Positions 539 through 38,648 of a stretch of 64,000 bases of DNA are shown one piece after another. Made by a program: the position numbers and the translations under genes. The notes under the pieces are model-generated. The model was not told the DNA's origin and did no database searches. It saw only the letters and a program-made list of their open reading frames with translations. The DNA is from Escherichia phage vB_EcoM_VR25, in the sequence record NC_028925.1. The stretch is one strand, 5' to 3'. How positions within the stretch are numbered: position 1 is the stretch's first letter; every line of letters starts with the position of its first letter.

Positions 539-2518
539 ATGGCTTTATTATCCCCGGGCATTGAGCTCAAAGAAACAACGGTCCAAAGCACTGTTGTTCG
601 TAACGCGACGGGTCGTGCGGCGCTGGTTGGTAAATTCCAGTGGGGCCCAGCTTTCCAGGTAACTCAGATTACAAACGAAGTGGAACTTGTTGATTTGTTT
701 GGTGGCCCGAACAATATCACAGCTGACTACTTTATGAGTGGAATGAACTTCCTTCAATATGGTAATGACCTGCGCACAGTTCGTGTAGTTAACCGCGACC
801 ACGCTAAAAACGCATCCCCGGTAGCAGGGAACATCGAAAGTACAATCGCTACTGCAGGTTCTAACTATGCAGTCGGTGACGTTATCCAGGTTAAACACAA
901 CCAGACTGTTGTTGAAACTTCTGGCCGTATTACCAAGGTTGACGTTGACGGGAAAATCCTCGCGGTCTTCATTCCGTCTGACAAAATTATTGCCTTTGCA
1001 AAATCTGTAAACCAGTATCCGGACCTTGGTCCAGCATGGACTGCTGAAATCCTGACCACTTCTTCAGGTGTGTCTGGTACGATTACCCTTGGGAAAATTG
1101 TCACCGATTCTGGTATCCTGTTGACCGAAGCAGAAAATAGCGAAGAAGCTATTACCTCTTTGGAATTCCAGGCTTCCCTGCAGAAATATGCAATGCCAGG
1201 TGTTGTTGCTCTTTATCCTGGTGAAATCGGTTCGACTCTCGAAGTTGAAATCGTTTCCAAAGCTGCATATGATGTTGGCGCTTCGAAGATGCTTGACATT
1301 TATCCGAATGGTGGTTCCCGTGCTTCTGTTGCTCGTGCGGTGTTTAACTATGGTCCGCAGACTGACGACCAGTATGCAATCATCGTTCGTCGTGATGGCG
1401 CTATCGTTGAAAACGTTGTTCTGTCAACCAAAGAAGGCGATAAAGACGTTTACGGCAACAACATTTATCTGGACGACTACTTTGCAAAAGGTACTTCCAA
1501 TTACATCTATGCAACTTCTCTGAACTGGCCAAAAGGCTTTGCAGGCATCATCAATCTGATGGGTGGTATTTCTGCAAACGACCAGGTTACTGCTGGTGAT
1601 TTGATGCAAGGTTGGGACCTGTTTGCTGACCGTGAAGCACTGCATATTAACCTGCTTATCGCTGGTGCAGTAGCTGGTGAAGGTGATGCAACCGCTTCAA
1701 CTGTTCAGAAGCACGTGGTTTCTATCGCTGACGAACGTCAGGATTGCCTGGCATTTATCTCTCCACCAAAAGGCCTTCTGGTTAACGTTCCTCTGACCCG
1801 TGCAGTGGATAACCTGATTGACTGGCGTACAGGTGGCGGCTCATTCGATACTGATAACATGAATATCAGCACGACTTATGCAGCGATTGATGGCAACTAT
1901 AAATATCAGTATGATAAATATAACGACGTTAACCGTTGGGTTCCTCTGGCAGCTGATATGGCTGGTCTGTGTGCTCGTACTGATGATGTTTCTCAGCCTT
2001 GGATGTCTCCGGCCGGTTATAACCGTGGTCAGATTCTGAACGTACTGAAATTGGCTATCGAACCTCGTCAGACCCAACGTGACCGCATGTATCAAGAAGC
2101 TATCAACCCGGTTGTTGGTTTCGCAGGTGGTGATGGTTTTGTTCTTTACGGTGATAAGACTGCAACTAAAGTTCCATCTCCGATGGACCATATCAACGTT
2201 CGTCGTCTTACGAATATGCTGAAGAAAAATATCGGTGACGCATCCAAATATAAACTGTTTGAGCTTAACGATAACTTCACTCGTGCATCATTCCGTATGG
2301 AAACTTCTCAATACTTGGATGGTATTCGTGCGCTCGGTGGCATTTATGAAGGTCGTGTGGTTTGTGATACTACCAACAACACCCCGTCGGTCATAGACCG
2401 AAATGAGTTTGTTGCTAGCATTTATTTTAAACCTGCGCGCAGCATCAACTACATCACACTTAATTTCGTAGCCACAAGCACTGGTGCTGATTTTGATGAG
2501 CTGATTGGGCCGCAATAA
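539..2518 (+). CDS. 18: Tail sheath protein
   Basis: 659-aa ORF; length and position match T4 gp18; follows gene 17 and a late promoter. Confidence 0.93.
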   Translation: MALLSPGIELKETTVQSTVVRNATGRAALVGKFQWGPAFQVTQITNEVELVDLFGGPNNITADYFMSGMNFLQYGNDLRTVRVVNRDHAKNASPVAGNIESTIATAGSNYAVGDVIQVKHNQTVVETSGRITKVDVDGKILAVFIPSDKIIAFAKSVNQYPDLGPAWTAEILTTSSGVSGTITLGKIVTDSGILLTEAENSEEAITSLEFQASLQKYAMPGVVALYPGEIGSTLEVEIVSKAAYDVGASKMLDIYPNGGSRASVARAVFNYGPQTDDQYAIIVRRDGAIVENVVLSTKEGDKDVYGNNIYLDDYFAKGTSNYIYATSLNWPKGFAGIINLMGGISANDQVTAGDLMQGWDLFADREALHINLLIAGAVAGEGDATASTVQKHVVSIADERQDCLAFISPPKGLLVNVPLTRAVDNLIDWRTGGGSFDTDNMNISTTYAAIDGNYKYQYDKYNDVNRWVPLAADMAGLCARTDDVSQPWMSPAGYNRGQILNVLKLAIEPRQTQRDRMYQEAINPVVGFAGGDGFVLYGDKTATKVPSPMDHINVRRLTNMLKKNIGDASKYKLFELNDNFTRASFRMETSQYLDGIRALGGIYEGRVVCDTTNNTPSVIDRNEFVASIYFKPARSINYITLNFVATSTGADFDELIGPQ

Positions 2519-2561
2519 TTATCATCGCTTAGAATTTAATTAGTAGTGAAACCGTAGAACC

Positions 2562-2589
2562 ATTATACAGTGTTATAAATAAAAGCATA
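2562..2589 (-). promoter_or_regulatory. Possible antisense middle-type promoter (TATAAT plus MotA-box-like TGCTT) between genes 18 and 19
   Basis: Minus-strand TATAAT at 2562-2567 with TGCTT-containing box at 2581-2589 about 13 nt upstream; embedded in a 10-bp inverted repeat (2552-2561 / 2593-2602). Confidence 0.3.
2574..2581 (+). promoter_or_regulatory. Late promoter box TATAAATA (first of two upstream of gene 19)
   Basis: Exact TATAAATA; lies in the loop of the inverted repeat. Confidence 0.5.
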
Positions 2590-2660
2590 ATCGGTTCTAC
2601 GGGCTCCTGTAATCAATTCTGGGAAGCCATTATCTTGAGATGATGAATCATATTACCTAG

Positions 2661-2668
2661 TATAAATA
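2661..2668 (+). promoter_or_regulatory. Late promoter box TATAAATA upstream of gene 19
   Basis: Exact TATAAATA about 50 nt upstream of the chosen gene 19 start. Confidence 0.6.
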
Positions 2669-2720
2669 CATGCATCAGGGACGCGTTCGCGCGACCTGTG
2701 TCTATAAAGAGGATTCCTTA

Positions 2721-3212
2721 ATGGAGTTGACCGATATCACACGCGCTTTCGAATCCGGTGACTTTGCTCGCCCTAACCTGTTCGAAGTCGAAATCCCATT
2801 CCTGGGTAAAAACTTTGCTTTCCATTGTAAAGCAGCCCCGATGCCTGCTGGCATTGTAGAAAAAGTACCAGTTGGTTATATGAACCGTAAAATCAACGTT
2901 GCGGGAGACCGTACATTTGATGACTGGACTATTACGATTTATAACGACGATGCTCATAAAGTTCGTCAAGCAATTGTTGATTGGCAAAATATGTGTCACG
3001 GTATGACTAACGAAATTACCGGTGCAGCTCCTGCTGATTATAAGAAAACCGCTACTGTCCGCCAGTTCCATCGTGATGGCAAGACCATTACTAAAGAAGT
3101 TGTTATCACCGGCATGTGGCCAACTAACGTTGGGGAAGTCCAGATGGATTGGGATTCGAATAATGAGATTGAGACATTCGAAACTACGTTTGCAATTGAC
3201 TGGTGGGAATAA
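2721..3212 (+). CDS. 19: Tail tube protein
   Basis: Internal ATG at 2721 preceded by AAAGAGGA; product MELTDITRAFESGDFARPNLFEVEIPF... closely matches remembered T4 gp19 N-terminus; the ORF-track start at 2670 sits inside the promoter and is rejected. Confidence 0.93.
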   Translation: MELTDITRAFESGDFARPNLFEVEIPFLGKNFAFHCKAAPMPAGIVEKVPVGYMNRKINVAGDRTFDDWTITIYNDDAHKVRQAIVDWQNMCHGMTNEITGAAPADYKKTATVRQFHRDGKTITKEVVITGMWPTNVGEVQMDWDSNNEIETFETTFAIDWWE

Positions 3213-3213
3213 G

Positions 3214-3221
3214 TATAAATA
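3214..3221 (+). promoter_or_regulatory. Late promoter box TATAAATA upstream of gene 20
   Basis: Exact TATAAATA; followed by a GAGGC-TTCG-GCCTC hairpin at 3231-3246 in the 5' leader. Confidence 0.6.
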
Positions 3222-3269
3222 AAGTTATTATGAGGCTTCGGCCTCATTTCCCAAACTTCGGAGACTCTA

Positions 3270-4844
3270 ATGGCAGGTTTTAATACAATACTAAATTTTC
3301 TTAAGCCTTGGGCTAAAGAAGATGAACAAGAATATAAGCAACAAGAAAAAAATAATTTAGAGTCAATGACCGGGCCGAAGTTTGATGATGGGGCTCGCGA
3401 AATTGAGTCACAAGAACAAAACGTCCCGTATAATGCATTGATGCAACAGATGTTCGGGAGCAACGAACCGGAAGTAAAAAACACCAGGGAATTAATTGAC
3501 ACATACCGCAACCTACTAAATAATTATGAAGTTGATAACGCGGTGCAAGAAATTGTGTCTGATGCTATCGTTTTTGAAGATGGTAAAGATGTCGTAGCTC
3601 TTAACCTTGATGCTACTGAATTTAGTCAGAAAATTAAAGACCGAATTCTCGAAGAATTCTCGGAAGTTAATAACCTCCTTAATTTCGAGCGTAAAGGTTC
3701 TGACCACTTTAAACGTTGGTATGTGGATTCTCGAATTTTCTTCCACAAAATTATCAACCCTTCAAAACTTAAAGAAGGCGTTCAAGAACTTCGTCGCCTT
3801 GACCCAAGACAAATCCAGTTCATCCGTGAAATCGTTACACGCATGGAAAATGGTACGAAAATTGTTGACGGTTACAGAGAATATTTTGTATACGATACTG
3901 GACATGAAAGCTATTGTGCCGATGGTCGTATATATGAAGCGGGTACTAAAATAAAAATTCCTCGTGCGGCAATTGTATATGCACATTCCGGATTACTTGA
4001 TTGTTGCGGTAAGAATATCATCGGATACCTGCAACGAGCAATCAAACCTGCAAACCAATTAAAACTATTAGAAGATGCTTTAGTCATTTATCGTATAACT
4101 CGTGCGCCAGACCGCCGAGTCTTTTATATCGATACTGGGAATATGCCGTCTCGTAAAGCAGCAGCACATATGCAACATATTATGAACACGATGAAAAACC
4201 GTGTCGTATATGATGCAACTACGGGTAAAATCAAAAATCAACAGCATAATATGTCAATGACAGAAGACTATTGGTTGCAACGTCGTGACGGTAAAGCAGT
4301 CACTGAAGTTGATACTCTCCCAGGTGCACAAGGCATGTCGGATATGGACGATGTTCGCTGGTTTAAGAACAACCTATATCAGGCTCTCAGAATTCCATTA
4401 TCTCGTATCCCTAATGACCAGAACAGTGGCGTTATGTTTGATGCGGGGGCGACAATTACTCGCGATGAATTGAATTTCTCTAAATGGATTAGACAACTAC
4501 AGAATAAATTTGAAGAAGTTTTCCTCGACCCGCTTAAAACCAACCTTATCCTGAAAAAAGTTATTTCAGAAGAGGAATGGGACAAGGAACTAAATAATAT
4601 TAAAGTTACGTTCAACCGTGATAGCTATTTCACCGAAATGAAAGATGCAGAAATCATGGAACGCAGAATCAATATGCTAACGATGGCTGAACCGTTTATC
4701 GGTAAATATATTTCGCATCAAACTGCAATGAAGGATTTCCTCCAGATGTCTGATGAAGAAATTAATCAAGAAGCTAAGCAAATTGAATTGGAGTCCAAAG
4801 AGGCTCGTTTCCAAAACCCTGAAGAAGAAGAAGAGGATTTCTAA
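3270..4844 (+). CDS. 20: Portal vertex protein
   Basis: 524-aa ORF, same length class and position as T4 gp20. Confidence 0.93.
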
Positions 4845-12617: not shown

Positions 12618-12714
12618 AATCTCTCACTTTTGATGTTATAAATATCATTATAAATTATACCCTCTATACTTTCTTTCTCTGAAAGGAATTAATCGTATCG
12701 GAAGGTCTAGAACC

Positions 12715-12742
12715 ATTATACCACAATTTTATTTGAAGCAAA
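12715..12742 (-). promoter_or_regulatory. Middle-type promoter (MotA-box-like TTTGCTTCA plus TATAAT) upstream of rnlB
   Basis: Minus-strand TATAAT at 12715-12720 and TGCTT box at 12734-12742; followed by GGTTCTAGACC box seen at other promoters. Confidence 0.4.
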
Positions 12743-13347: not shown

Positions 13348-14928
13348 ATGACACAAACTACAGGTGAAAAAGAAGGCGTATTTTACGGTTATTCTCTTTA
13401 TGATTTGAATAAAGAAAAACTAATAACTTTTGATGAATTACTTACAGGTGTTCAAGGAGAGCCCGGAGAAAATGGCGATATTGGACCAAAAGGCCCTATT
13501 GGTTTAACAGGTCCTCAAGGACCGAAAGGTGATACCGGGTCAAAAGGTATTAAAGGTGATACCGGCCCTCAAGGTATTCAAGGGCCCGCTGGCCCACAAG
13601 GTCCTCAGGGAGAAAAGGGAGTCCAAGGTTTAGCTGGAGTCCAAGGCATTCAAGGACCAGTCGGCCACCAAGGAGTGAAAGGTGATACCGGCCCTCAAGG
13701 TATTCAAGGACCGAAAGGTGATACAGGTCCTCAAGGCCCACAAGGTGACAAAGGCGAAATGGGTCCGGTGGGTCCGGCTGGTCTAACATGGAAAGGAACA
13801 TGGGACGCTGATGTAGAGTATTCTATAAATGAGGCTGTCGGATATGGTGGTTCTTTATATTTCGCCAAAACAAAAGTTCCTAATGGCGAAATACCAACAC
13901 CGACTTCTAACTATTGGGGTGTTTTGGCTACCGAGGGTCCACAAGGTCCACAAGGTCAACAAGGTCTTAAAGGTGATACCGGTCCTCAAGGTATTCAAGG
14001 ACCTGTAGGGCCTGTAGGGCAGCAGGGTATTCAGGGACCAAGAGGACTTCAAGGGTCAGAAGGTGAAATAGGACCGCGGGGTATTCAAGGGCTAAAAGGC
14101 GAAACTGGGCCCGCTGGTCCACAGGGTATTCAAGGGCTAAAAGGCGAGGTGGGTGCTCAGGGTCCTTCTGGTTCTCCTGGACTTACAGGACCAGAAGGAC
14201 CTCGTGGGTTAACAGGCGAAGCTGGAGCTCAAGGACCTCGTGGTGCTATAGGTCCTATCGGTTTAACAGGTCCTATCGGTTTAACGGGTCCTCAAGGTAT
14301 TCAAGGTCCTAAAGGTGATACAGGTCCTCAAGGCTTACAAGGTCCTCAAGGCTTACGAGGTATTCAAGGAGCTCCTGGAGTAAAAGGAGAAGCGGGTGCA
14401 CAAGGTCCTATCGGTTTAACAGGTCCGAAAGGTGATACCGGTCCTCAAGGTATTCAAGGACCGAAAGGTGATACAGGAGCACAAGGTCCTATTGGTTTAA
14501 CTGGACCTAAAGGTGATACAGGCCCGAGCCCTTATACTGTTTATAATTATTCTAATGTTGCAACTGGTTATGCTGAAATGGTTATGCCTGGTGTGTCATC
14601 AAACACAGTATTTAGACTTCGTTCAGTTGGAACTAATATAGAATATAGTGTTCTAAGTAAAGGCGGAGCTAATAGATATGTAGATTGGCACTTTTCAATT
14701 CCAAGTGTTTCCGGCAATACAGTAAGTACTAATAGCGGAACTAATACATTAACTCCTACAGGTAATTTTACTATTGTGGCGACCGCTTATAATGGACTAA
14801 GGGGATTTACAATAACATTATGCGAGTGGGGTTCAAGAGCTATTGTTGATATCACTGTTTATCATCATGGGCGTTCGGGAGACACAACCAAAGCTGTGGC
14901 TATTCGTATGACTACTACAAAATACTAA
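13348..14928 (+). CDS. Collagen-like (Gly-X-Y repeat) protein with aromatic globular insert and C-terminal globular domain
   Basis: 526-aa ORF, GGAGGA RBS; two long uninterrupted G-X-Y blocks (about 13450-13790 and 13930-14525) separated by a W/Y-rich segment; about 135 aa non-collagen C-terminus. Confidence 0.85.
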   Translation: MTQTTGEKEGVFYGYSLYDLNKEKLITFDELLTGVQGEPGENGDIGPKGPIGLTGPQGPKGDTGSKGIKGDTGPQGIQGPAGPQGPQGEKGVQGLAGVQGIQGPVGHQGVKGDTGPQGIQGPKGDTGPQGPQGDKGEMGPVGPAGLTWKGTWDADVEYSINEAVGYGGSLYFAKTKVPNGEIPTPTSNYWGVLATEGPQGPQGQQGLKGDTGPQGIQGPVGPVGQQGIQGPRGLQGSEGEIGPRGIQGLKGETGPAGPQGIQGLKGEVGAQGPSGSPGLTGPEGPRGLTGEAGAQGPRGAIGPIGLTGPIGLTGPQGIQGPKGDTGPQGLQGPQGLRGIQGAPGVKGEAGAQGPIGLTGPKGDTGPQGIQGPKGDTGAQGPIGLTGPKGDTGPSPYTVYNYSNVATGYAEMVMPGVSSNTVFRLRSVGTNIEYSVLSKGGANRYVDWHFSIPSVSGNTVSTNSGTNTLTPTGNFTIVATAYNGLRGFTITLCEWGSRAIVDITVYHHGRSGDTTKAVAIRMTTTKY

Positions 14929-14937
14929 GGAGCTTTA

Positions 14938-15801
14938 ATGGAACCGGTTAAAGCTGTGTTAGAGCCTGATGTAATAGATGTGGAATATGGTAATACATAC
15001 TCGGCTACTGTAACTCTGTCTCCTATAGAAAATATTCCAGATGGTTCCGTGATAAGATATGATTGGGTTGTTAATAACAAGTTCGTTGGTACGGGTGAAG
15101 CTACTCGTACCACCCAACCATCTCAGACCGGAAATTATGTATTATCATGTAGAGTATTCATTACTCCGCCTAATGAAAATACTGTAATGATAACAACTAA
15201 TAAATCATATGGGTATGTATATAAAAATTCCGATACAAGTCCAGTAGATGCAGAAATATTATATGATAACAAGATATACCAAATAGGAAGCAAAGTTAGA
15301 TTATTAGCCGTTGCCAATAACCCAGATACCAACTTTGTTAAAGGTATTATATGGAAGGATGCTGATGGTAAGATAATAGGTATAGGTCGGGAATATATCC
15401 ATACAATGCAATCAGAGTATGATATAGTTCGAGCTAAAGTTACAATGGATTCGCCTATAAGAGATGAATTTAGTAAGAACTTTACTATACATTTGTACGC
15501 TATAAATGTTCAAGAAGGAACATGTATAAGATATATTCATCCTTTAGACCACAGGGATGCAGGATTTATCTGGTGTGGTTGGTGGGTTATGGATGAAATC
15601 CAACGAGCGATAAAACTTGGGCTGGATTGGAAAAATCCAAAAGAGCTAGATTTAAATTACAAGTGTGATTTAGAGACATTAGCGTTATTGCTCAAGACAT
15701 ATCCTGAAGCCGAAGTTCAAGAATCAAGACACGGATATATAATAACCAGACTACAAATTGAGACTGGCGAAATATATAAAAAACCATATGAAGTAAAATA
15801 A
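14938..15801 (+). CDS. Hoc-like capsid decoration protein (second hoc paralog)
   Basis: 287-aa ORF, AAGGAG RBS; C-terminal region (HPLDHR..IWCGWWVMDEIQ..YPEAEVQESRHGYII) shares the capsid-binding domain with the canonical Hoc downstream. Confidence 0.85.
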   Translation: MEPVKAVLEPDVIDVEYGNTYSATVTLSPIENIPDGSVIRYDWVVNNKFVGTGEATRTTQPSQTGNYVLSCRVFITPPNENTVMITTNKSYGYVYKNSDTSPVDAEILYDNKIYQIGSKVRLLAVANNPDTNFVKGIIWKDADGKIIGIGREYIHTMQSEYDIVRAKVTMDSPIRDEFSKNFTIHLYAINVQEGTCIRYIHPLDHRDAGFIWCGWWVMDEIQRAIKLGLDWKNPKELDLNYKCDLETLALLLKTYPEAEVQESRHGYIITRLQIETGEIYKKPYEVK

Positions 15802-15824: not shown

Positions 15825-16928
15825 TTAATAGACGTAATCGTATATAATACCAGCTTCCAATGCCGAACGGTGGACGATACGACCGTTACGAGATTCCTGT
15901 ACATCAACTTCCGGGTAATCACTAAGCATTTTGGCTAATACCGCCAGATGACAATAATATGGTGTATCCTCTTTAGTGGCTTTTTTCCAATCTGTACTTT
16001 CAGATGTTAATTTCTGAATAGCGTCCATAACCCACCAGCCACACCAAATATACGCAGTATTACGGACAGGAAGTGGATGTACATAAATTAAAGGGCATTC
16101 TTCTGGAATAACAGGCTCTGCTTCTTCCACAGTAACGGACTTAGTACCTGATTTAACTGAATTTGTAAAGCCTGTTTGTGATGCGGTAACTTCACAAGTA
16201 TATGTCTTCAAGCCTTCAGTGGATTCCGTTATTGCTCTTGTTGCTTCTGTTGAGTTGTCGTCCCATTTATATGCAAGAGTCGCACCAGGGATAGCAGGGG
16301 ACACAGAAGCTGTCAAATTGAATGGAACATCAACCGTTGCAGTAGACGGGCCTGAAATCTCAACAGTGAACTCAGGAAATGTATTGTTTTCGACCGTAAC
16401 AACTACTGCCTCAGGATTAATAACTTGATTGTCATAATCTGCCGCAGAAACGGTAATTTGGCAAGTTAAAGAAACTGGTCCTGCGTCAGTAGCAGCACGA
16501 GTAATATCTTTAGTAATTTCACCAGTAGACCACAAATATGCTATTGTAGCTCCACCGGGTTCACCTGTTACATTAGCCGAAGCGTTATATTCCTGACCAA
16601 CTTTAACAGTAGGAGTGGAAGTTGTTAATGTTGCTGTTGCAGCCATAGTCTTATTATTAACCGTAATGGTTGTTTGAGCCTCTGCCGTTTCAGGCTCTCC
16701 TTCTTCCGGCGTTGTGGTGGCAACAACTTTAATTACTTTTGAACCTGCTGGGCCAGCTGCAATATAATCCATAGTAGCAATAACAGAATCTTGTGGAACA
16801 TCATCAACGGTCCATACAAAAGATTCGGTACCAGCGACAGCGGCTCCAGCCCCAGTAGCAGTAAAATTAGTTGTTGCACCTATAACCGCTGTAGGTGTTA
16901 AAGGGGCAATTGATACAGTATAAGCCAT
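15825..16928 (-). CDS. hoc: Highly immunogenic outer capsid protein Hoc
   Basis: 367-aa ORF, Ser/Thr/Ala-rich Ig-like repeats plus C-terminal YVHPLP..YIWCGWWVMD..YPEVDVQESRNG motif as in T4 Hoc. Confidence 0.92.
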   Translation of the reverse strand: MAYTVSIAPLTPTAVIGATTNFTATGAGAAVAGTESFVWTVDDVPQDSVIATMDYIAAGPAGSKVIKVVATTTPEEGEPETAEAQTTITVNNKTMAATATLTTSTPTVKVGQEYNASANVTGEPGGATIAYLWSTGEITKDITRAATDAGPVSLTCQITVSAADYDNQVINPEAVVVTVENNTFPEFTVEISGPSTATVDVPFNLTASVSPAIPGATLAYKWDDNSTEATRAITESTEGLKTYTCEVTASQTGFTNSVKSGTKSVTVEEAEPVIPEECPLIYVHPLPVRNTAYIWCGWWVMDAIQKLTSESTDWKKATKEDTPYYCHLAVLAKMLSDYPEVDVQESRNGRIVHRSALEAGIIYDYVY

Positions 16929-20211: not shown

Positions 20212-20239
20212 AATGTATCCAATGTAAGGGTCTAGAACC

Positions 20240-20266
20240 ATTATACAGCCATAAAATTAAAGCATT
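20240..20266 (-). promoter_or_regulatory. MotA-type middle promoter upstream of uvsY
   Basis: Minus-strand AATGCTTTA box (20258-20266) about 12 nt upstream of TATAAT (20240-20245). Confidence 0.5.
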
Positions 20267-38577: not shown

Positions 38578-38648
38578 TTCTTTTCTCGCTTAGTTATTGG
38601 GATTATCCAAAGGACCTAGACCCATTATAACATAAAATTTTTAAAGCG

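Follow-up and report, generated by a model that had tools for sequence, protein, structure and literature searches.

The 202-nt spacer between the tail-sheath gene 18 and the tail-tube gene 19 of Escherichia phage vB_EcoM_VR25 contains an inverted repeat with promoter-like sequences for both strands between its arms, which raises the question of whether a promoter points back into gene 18 and of what role the repeat would then have. A preliminary description of this DNA had claimed that a perfect 10-bp repeat encloses both a late promoter and, on the opposite strand, a middle-type promoter facing gene 18. Here we examine these claims in 64,000 nt of the phage genome from record NC_028925.1, which we refer to as the window, and in related phages. 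The features discussed below are collected in Table 1. We assign the phage to Gaprivervirus (the VR7/SP18/VR20 group of T4-like phages). Phages of this genus, these three among them, match the region at 90-97% identity, and no record was identical to it.

Table 1 Coordinates of genes and of observed and predicted elements at the gene 18-19 junction of the window
Feature	Position	Strand	Basis or remark
Gene 18, tail sheath, 659 aa	539..2518	+	ORF and annotations of relatives
Predicted antisense RNA leader, ~76% A+T	2519..2551	-	between the promoter and the gene 18 stop codon
Left arm CCGTAGAACC	2552..2561	.	sequence; on the minus strand, initially transcribed sequence of the predicted antisense promoter
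Predicted transcription start A, 7th nt after the -10	2555	-	inferred from the mapped T4 PuvsY and P34i starts
-10 hexamer TATAAT	2562..2567	-	ATTAT on the plus strand also lengthens the stem with 2587-2591
Distal late-promoter -10 TATAAATA	2574..2581	+	in the hairpin loop; predicted start ~2587-2589
MotA box TTATGCTTTT (consensus wwwTGCTTtA)	2581..2590	-	pattern match 2589-2562
Right arm GGTTCTACGG	2593..2602	.	sequence
Proximal late promoter TATAAATA	2661..2668	+	for gene 19 (ATG 2721), in the second conserved island
Gene 19, tail tube, 163 aa, ATG 2721	2721-3212	+	
Gene 20	3270-4844	+	

Results

A perfect inverted repeat in the gene 18-19 spacer is predicted to form a stable hairpin

The two arms, CCGTAGAACC and GGTTCTACGG, lie 31 nt apart and are 100% complementary over 10 bp, so that the claim of a perfect repeat is borne out. 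Folding extends the stem by pairing ATTAT (2562-2566) with ATAAT (2587-2591), with C2592 bulged, which gives 15 bp and a 20-nt loop. The preliminary description had proposed RNA folding of the 18-19 region as a check, and this returned the stable 15-bp stem, with -20.8 kcal/mol for the plus-strand RNA (z = -4.4 against shuffled sequence) and -25.0 kcal/mol for the minus-strand RNA (z = -5.8). A further, outward pairing of 2528-2536 with 2615-2623 is present in the window and absent from some relatives. Perfect 10-bp inverted repeats with loops of 3-40 nt occur at 7 loci in the window (10 overlapping pairs), against an expectation of ~3.2 pairs per window from first-order Markov simulations. 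A perfect 10-bp repeat is thus not rare per se, and the significance of this one comes from the elements that it encloses and from its conservation. The arms are single-copy, with no second occurrence as a pair within the window.

Elsewhere in the window, a late promoter followed by a hairpin also precedes gene 20 (3214-3260, GAGGC-TTCG-GCCTC). Farther on, a 526-aa ORF (13348-14928, plus strand) consists mostly of collagen-like G-x-y repeats (GPQG, GDTG and similar), with the rnlB/24.x block on one side and two Hoc-like ORFs (14938-15801, plus strand, and 15825-16928, minus strand) on the other; the T4 annotation has no collagen-like ORF between 24.3 and hoc.

The minus strand carries a predicted MotA-type middle promoter that faces gene 18

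About 60 MotA/AsiA-dependent middle promoters have been mapped in T4 (Hinton 2010, PMC2988021); they have a MotA box, wwwTGCTT(t/c)A, centred near -30 and separated by 12 +/- 1 bp from an excellent sigma-70 -10 element (PMC2988021). Read along the minus strand, the region between the arms presents TTATGCTTTT (2590-2581), a 13-nt spacer (2580-2568) and TATAAT (2567-2562), followed by GGTTCTACGG. The box agrees with the MotA consensus at 9 of 10 positions, its last base being T rather than A, and both the 13-nt spacer and the perfect TATAAT satisfy the spacing and -10 requirements. The preliminary description had given the arrangement as TGCTT, 13 nt, TATAAT. That order is correct, and the distance holds when counted from the end of the TGCTTTT heptamer or of the consensus (2581), but from the bare TGCTT it is 15 nt. 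The promoter is without a TGn extended -10; an initial reading of TGTATAAT as such an element (TGn-TATAAT) was withdrawn, its TG being one position off.

How specific this arrangement is can be judged from a scan of both strands of the 64 kb with a strict middle-promoter pattern, WWTGCTTNN-N11-13-TATAAT. It matched six times, always on the minus strand, whereas chance would give 0.08 matches. Besides the present element, the matches are the orthologs of five T4 promoters, P34i/oriG, P32, P30, PuvsY/oriF and PrnlB, each of which has been mapped experimentally as MotA-dependent (Table 1 of PMC2988021), and the predictive value of the pattern in this genome is therefore very high. Orthology was established by direct sequence comparison for P34i and by the downstream genes for PuvsY and PrnlB; the P32 ortholog is the promoter inside gene 59 ahead of gene 32, and the P30 ortholog lies ahead of the DNA ligase gene 30. 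The P34i/oriG ortholog (57376-57349, minus strand) differs from T4 by two mismatches over the 28-nt pattern and has similar flanks, and the PuvsY/oriF ortholog lies at 20240-20266.

The likeness that had been claimed to two minus-strand sites, 12742-12715 and 20266-20240, stands in part. Both sites are real, and TATAATGGTTCTA is common, exactly, to the element and to the PuvsY and PrnlB promoters of this phage; beyond it, the comparison promoters go on with G and the element with C, so that the continuation is GGTTCTAG and not GGTTCTAC. Several middle promoters share a start region, TATAATGG(T/G)TCTAG(A/G)(C/T)C, close to the palindrome GGTCTAGACC (minus strand, 12708-12720, 20233-20245 and 38617-38629), in place of which T4 PuvsY has TATAATGAATCTAAG.

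The mapped starts of T4 PuvsY and P34i are an A seven nt past the hexamer, and the same rule predicts A2555 as the antisense start. This prediction agrees with the start near 2555 that had been proposed before. MotA and AsiA are annotated in VR7, of the same genus, which is evidence at the level of the genus, the two genes lying outside the window; a literature search found no transcript mapping for any Gaprivervirus. Taken together, box, spacing and hexamer indicate that the spacer very probably holds a phage-activated (MotA-type) promoter pointing back into gene 18, which is the late gene that the predicted transcript would enter.

The late box between the arms may be a second promoter for gene 19

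On the plus strand the octamer TATAAATA falls in the antisense promoter's spacer and precedes the ATG of gene 19 by 147 nt. This octamer occurs 16 times on the plus strand of the window and 4 times on the minus strand, against 2.4 expected per strand, and most copies directly precede late genes; of the 16 on the plus strand, chance would account for ~2.4. The loop thus contains the late-promoter box that had been described there, but the main candidate for the gene 19 promoter is instead the proximal one. A second, distal late promoter for gene 19 is a plausible reading of the box in the loop, and the T4 18-19 spacer likewise has two TATAAATA boxes.

Several further features surround the late promoters. 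After the proximal one, the gene 19 leader forms a conserved hairpin with a UUCG loop (2672-2701, GCA-CAGG-CGCG-UUCG-CGCG-CCUG-UGU), with variation within it in TH15, TH54, TH57 and P479. Upstream of the same promoter, the motif GATGAT(G/A)AAT(C/T)ATATTACC (2642-2660) is common to distant T4-type clades (L028, L029 and L035 in our set of loci); in the window it also yields TTGAGA, 17 nt, TAGTAT, a sigma-70-like site on the plus strand, weak and overlapping the late promoter. Late promoters enclosed by hairpins are found elsewhere as well: in VR7 (locus L001, 1720-1786) as GCGCGTA-TGATATAAA-TACGCGC; upstream of the 19.1 ORFs of L037 and L040 as GGCTCTCTATAAATA...TATAGAGAGCC; as AGCCGATATAAATAGCTATATCGGCT in L036; and likewise in L074. 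Their recurrence indicates that TATAAATA within a hairpin is a repeated design and not exclusive to the window.

The element is conserved across Gaprivervirus and the predicted promoter outlives the repeat in VR26

We aligned the spacers of 16 Gaprivervirus phages and that of VR26, and counted variable columns over the 12 sequences, that of the window among them, that have no ORF inserted. Of 63 columns in the core (2549-2609), 3 vary; the count is 13 of 33 in the flank on its left and 6 of 32 in that on its right. Positions 2642-2720 form another conserved island, which comprises the proximal late promoter and the gene 19 leader. Within the core, none of the 17 aligned relatives, VR26 among them, departs from the TATAAT of the -10 hexamer; the TGCTT of the MotA box is likewise constant in the relatives (in the VR7 clade a 2-nt insertion lies just upstream of the box), as is the distal TATAAATA in all of them. 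The three variable sites of the 13-nt spacer all fall outside TATAAATA, for which we estimate a chance of about 0.06, and this weakly suggests that the late box may also be constrained.

The arms are conserved to a similar degree within the genus and behave differently in VR26. The left arm is unchanged in 15 of 16 relatives, the exception being a metagenome contig with C2560T, which keeps a G-U pair in the plus-strand RNA; the right arm is invariant in the 16. In VR26, by contrast, the left arm is altered at 4 of 10 positions and the right arm is precisely deleted. Yet VR26, despite the loss of the repeat and flanks that defy alignment, keeps a 30-nt block that begins with the -10 and ends with the MotA box, with a single mismatch. 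The extent of this block fits a middle promoter and not the 8-nt late box alone, and this is our main reason for regarding the antisense promoter as the unit that is selected. In the VR7 clade, both flanks of the core have been replaced and the core survives. By these comparisons we take the element to be real and under selection.

No compensatory double changes were found in the stem among the aligned relatives and the metagenome contig, which we attribute to the closeness of the relatives and the uniformity of the genus. The only changes within the structure are two transitions compatible with G-U pairing, C2560T in the metagenome contig and T/C at 2573. A scan of viral contigs for further relatives returned VR20 and VR26 only, and a scan of metagenomes returned one true contig and one false match (18S rRNA).

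The repeat is better read as the hairpin that follows gene 18 in T4-type phages

We fetched 79 T4-type 18-19 loci for comparison and computed folds among them. In every T4-type spacer examined, folding places a hairpin directly 3' of gene 18, and the order from there is A+T-rich stretch, second hairpin, late promoter. The repeat is the only hairpin candidate at this position in the window, and VR26, which is without the repeat, has a hairpin of its own, GGGGA-TGAAAG-TCCCC, directly after the stop codon. Conversely, the repeat flanks this middle promoter and no other middle promoter of the phage, so that flanking repeats are rejected as a general trait of such promoters. Because a hairpin after gene 18 is universal and the other middle promoters have no repeat, we read the arms as a plus-strand mRNA hairpin. 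The right arm has a promoter role on neither strand and is conserved nonetheless, which also argues for a hairpin. Thus, of the earlier proposal of a middle-type promoter facing gene 18, the promoter itself finds support in its box, spacing, -10 and conservation, but the repeat does not appear to be part of it; it is better read as the local version of the post-gene-18 mRNA hairpin.

Several other identities of the hairpin were considered and rejected. Past the stem, the plus strand continues with GCUCCUG and the minus strand with UUUCAC, the loop measures 20-31 nt, and a scan for intrinsic terminators made no call at the repeat; with its unusually large loop and no U-tract, the hairpin is not a canonical terminator, and a Rho-independent terminator reading is rejected. 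A known structured RNA family is rejected too, since covariance models of Rfam 15 gave no match at E <= 1 on either strand of 2000-3300. Single-copy arms and the lack of a flanking target-site duplication speak against a miniature transposon.

The spacers of T4 and other T4-type phages are built likewise, with a hairpin straight after the gene 18 stop codon and then one or two late promoters before gene 19. The T4 hairpins, however, are short (6 bp with a 6-nt loop) and stand beside the late promoters, whereas the repeat in the window encloses its late box. In T4, hairpins with an internal late promoter unmask translation of the lysozyme gene e, soc, gene 49 and I-TevI: the 3' arm holds the ribosome-binding site of the next gene, read-through transcripts carry both arms, and transcripts from the internal late promoter carry only the 3' arm. 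The repeat resembles these hairpins in that a late promoter lies between its two arms. It differs in that the right arm is ~110 nt upstream of the gene 19 ribosome-binding site, which is GAGG near 2710, and no ORF starts near it. A hairpin that masks a ribosome-binding site is therefore rejected, since the right arm sequesters neither the Shine-Dalgarno sequence nor the AUG of gene 19.

Backward-facing promoter elements appear to recur at the 18-19 junction of other T4-type phages

Among the T4-type spacers compared, the antisense MotA-type promoter is confined to Gaprivervirus. T4, the RB69-like phages and most other T4-type phages have no antisense promoter at the 18-19 site, which indicates that its function is dispensable or specific to a lineage. 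Parts of the element nevertheless have counterparts elsewhere. The sequence CATTATAC (GTATAATG on the minus strand) recurs, in different stems, within the first 18-19 hairpin of the JS98-like phages and of a clade comprising loci L029 and L035; its context is the extended -10 TGGTATAAT in the JS98-like phages and L035 and TAGTATAAT in L029. In the JS98-like phages, CTAAAACCATTATACCATG lies at the same place within nested repeats and reads TGGTATAATGG, an extended -10, on the minus strand; in these spacers (L016, L017, L019, which is JS98, and L020) the repeats around minus-strand TGGTATAATGG are CCCAGGC/GCCTGGG (outer) and AACCA/TGGTT (inner). The JS98-like element looks like a homolog of the one in the window, minus 19 nt containing TATAAATA and the MotA box. 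In the L029/L035 clade, CATTATAC forms part of a hairpin of 14 bp, and on the minus strand a TTGCTAAA box precedes it by 13 nt.

A perfect TATAAT is present on the minus strand in 10 of 34 distinct 18-19 spacers (five clades) and on the plus strand in 2 of 34 (one clade). Given this excess on the minus strand, and the JS98, L029 and L035 cases, backward-facing promoter elements look like a recurrent, lineage-limited trait of the 18-19 junction.

The predicted antisense transcript has no gene of its own and resembles that of T4 P34i

Nearly all mapped middle promoters of T4 precede a gene on the same strand, whereas the element in the window precedes none, and we read the antisense promoter as an orphan that no minus-strand gene follows. 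Neither the ORF list nor the sequence showed an ORF with a preceding Shine-Dalgarno sequence on the minus strand downstream of the promoter. A hidden gene was rejected, since the candidate in the window, a 75-aa ORF with a TTG start (2515-2288), lacks a Shine-Dalgarno sequence and runs antisense to gene 18 in the codon-aligned frame. In UPEC07 and DCP80, some pipelines annotate small ORFs on the minus strand at this place; these were rejected too, because they start upstream of the predicted transcription start. The predicted RNA leader is the least conserved part of the region, with indels among its 13 variable columns, which argues against a sequence-specific function of the RNA.

Among the mapped T4 middle promoters, the only orphan antisense one that we found is P34i, which serves the replication origin oriG. 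P34i is a MotA-dependent promoter inside the late gene 34 that fires against this gene (PMC2988021), and the oriG primer RNA runs opposite to gene 34. The element in the window is like P34i in being of the middle mode, on the early/middle strand within a block of late genes, and directed against a late gene with no downstream gene of its own; in both, TATAATGG is followed by an A start at +7. P34i differs in lying within coding sequence, with neither a flanking repeat nor an overlapping late promoter, and in having an origin function that experiments have demonstrated.

A middle promoter and an unwinding element that is A+T-rich but of any sequence suffice for the T4 origins oriF and oriG (PMC3016281); with needs so few, an origin-like role of the element is conceivable. 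A predicted middle-mode promoter, as in an R-loop origin, is present here at the sequence level. From +1 to +40 of the predicted transcript (2516-2555), the DNA is 72% A+T and at the 5th percentile of duplex stability, but +1 to +100 is average. The oriG ortholog is average too by the nearest-neighbour measure, and nearest-neighbour stability was rejected as a test for an unwinding element, since it does not separate origin promoters from ordinary ones.

Mobile ORFs abut the conserved core

Mobile ORFs of one family, gp19.1 (194-227 aa, phrog_5104, plus strand), make the 18-19 spacer a hotspot. The family is present in VR7 (L001, 1787-2392), VR26 (L004, 2643-3326) and loci L010, L014, L015, L031, L037 and L040, and absent from the window; its members occupy two alternative positions, one directly after gene 18 and one in which the ORF stops 0-3 nt short of the ATG of gene 19. 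In the VR7 clade, a 201-aa ORF 19.1 lies between gene 18 and the core, and the mobile ORFs abut the left edge of the core there and the right edge in VR26. Pfam returned no match for the inserted 19.1 ORFs, and PHROGs returned phrog_5104 together with an endonuclease VII-like family, the latter weakly; the gp19.1 ORFs behave like free-standing homing endonuclease genes.

Modules of a stem-loop and an early or middle promoter (PeSLs and PmSLs) mark sites of cassette exchange in T4-like phages (PMC2839356, PMC4122927), and PmSLs with TGCTT boxes have been described (Comeau 2014, PMC4122927). PeSLs consist of a compact terminator stem-loop upstream of a promoter, followed by a Shine-Dalgarno sequence and a start codon (Arbiol 2010, PMC2839356), and are present in many copies, mostly in hyperplastic regions (PMC2839356, PMC4122927). 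The element shares with them the form of a small, conserved intergenic stem-loop and promoter beside indels between close relatives, with mobile ORFs at the edges of the core and replaced flanks. It differs in that its arms enclose the promoter, are single-copy, lie in a block of structural genes and have no gene after them. One arm precedes the MotA box and the other follows the -10, in place of a terminator upstream of the promoter (in VR26, a stem-loop does lie just upstream of the promoter block), and the minus strand continues with a 36-nt spacer and then gene 18 antisense, in place of a Shine-Dalgarno sequence and start codon. Since the defining layout is lacking, we do not file the element as a PeSL.

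Discussion

The motifs of the 61-bp island 2549-2609, their non-random occurrence and strand bias, their conservation and the positional equivalence of the hairpin are observations. The joint reading that we prefer, and to which we give a probability of roughly 55%, is that the island is a two-way promoter module within the post-gene-18 hairpin. The island is a fresh example of known T4 parts. From these parts we infer the firing of the promoters, their start positions and the action of the antisense RNA, as follows. A few minutes after infection, the MotA/AsiA-dependent promoter would start near A2555 on the minus strand, and a non-coding RNA would traverse the A+T-rich leader and enter gene 18 at its 3' end, as an orphan 'anti-late' transcript that would probably end within a few hundred nt, by Rho or at a weak hairpin (2187-2173). 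The TATAAATA box in the loop would act as a distal late promoter for gene 19, back-to-back with the middle promoter, so that one stretch of 30 bp would serve two divergent promoters, each at its own time. The arms, in turn, may act in plus-strand late mRNA reading out of gene 18, by protecting a 3' end or by weakly attenuating read-through.

The simplest alternative is that the repeat is just this lineage's post-gene-18 hairpin, with an A+T-rich loop whose promoter-like words are unused. The universality of a hairpin at this place in the T4-type phages examined would fit, as would its significantly stable fold, the compatibility of both variable sites of the structure with G-U pairing on the plus strand and the frequency of TATAAT-like words in A+T-rich spacers. 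We nevertheless consider it improbable: VR26 has kept the -10-to-MotA-box block almost intact without the repeat, the loop is conserved as much as the arms, unlike a passive loop, and the strict pattern is expected so rarely by chance, and has mapped-promoter orthologs as its five other matches, that unused words are hard to credit. The same low expectation, with the conservation of the island, weighs against pure coincidence, in which a chance repeat would have met chance promoter-like words. Several perfect 10-bp repeats are expected by chance per 64 kb, but only ~0.01 in a 200-nt spacer, and the fold z-scores are likewise far from those of shuffled sequence, which makes coincidence very unlikely indeed.

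The island could also be a recombination linker, or the relic of one, a PeSL/PmSL-like cassette or remnant serving as a patch of homology for swaps of mobile ORFs. The phrog_5104 hotspot with its ORFs abutting either edge of the island, the mosaic flanks and the precedent of PmSLs with TGCTT boxes speak for this. We think it doubtful, however, because the arms flank the promoter with no terminator upstream, neither a Shine-Dalgarno sequence nor a gene follows, the pair of arms occurs once in the window, the mobile ORFs are on the strand opposite to the promoter, and conservation across the genus is tighter than a relic would lead one to expect. A further idea bears on the purpose of the transcript. 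The orphan promoter could prime replication through an R-loop in the A+T-rich leader, as at T4 oriG and oriF, its RNA being a primer and not a regulator. The only orphan antisense middle promoter found in T4 is that of an origin, the leader is A+T-rich and variable in sequence, and the -10 and start region are the same as in PuvsY of this phage; against this, ordinary promoters such as PrnlB have the same start sequence, the site is not at a switch of transcription strand, and duplex stability does not discriminate, the oriG ortholog being average and the present site ordinary past +40. An extra R-loop origin at the gene 18/19 junction, specific to Gaprivervirus and Dhakavirus, in which the repeat might open the DNA or hold the R-loop, therefore seems to us a long shot.

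Returning to the two-way module, its most direct consequence, if the antisense promoter fires, would be a programmed antisense RNA directed at the 3' end of a late gene that ranks among the most highly expressed, at a site where T4 makes no such RNA. The island would also be a case of tight signal packing, with two promoters of different temporal classes and an RNA hairpin in ~50 bp. For annotation, the strict MotA-box pattern finds, in an experimentally unexplored genus, the orthologs of middle promoters that have been mapped in T4. Natural controls exist among the relatives: some have the repeat, VR26 does not, and in the VR7 clade a mobile ORF separates the promoter from gene 18. Since the only other orphan antisense middle promoter found is that of oriG, a second, naturally variable case could help with an old question, namely whether the purpose of such 'anti-late' transcription from middle promoters is mainly replication priming, regulation or nothing.
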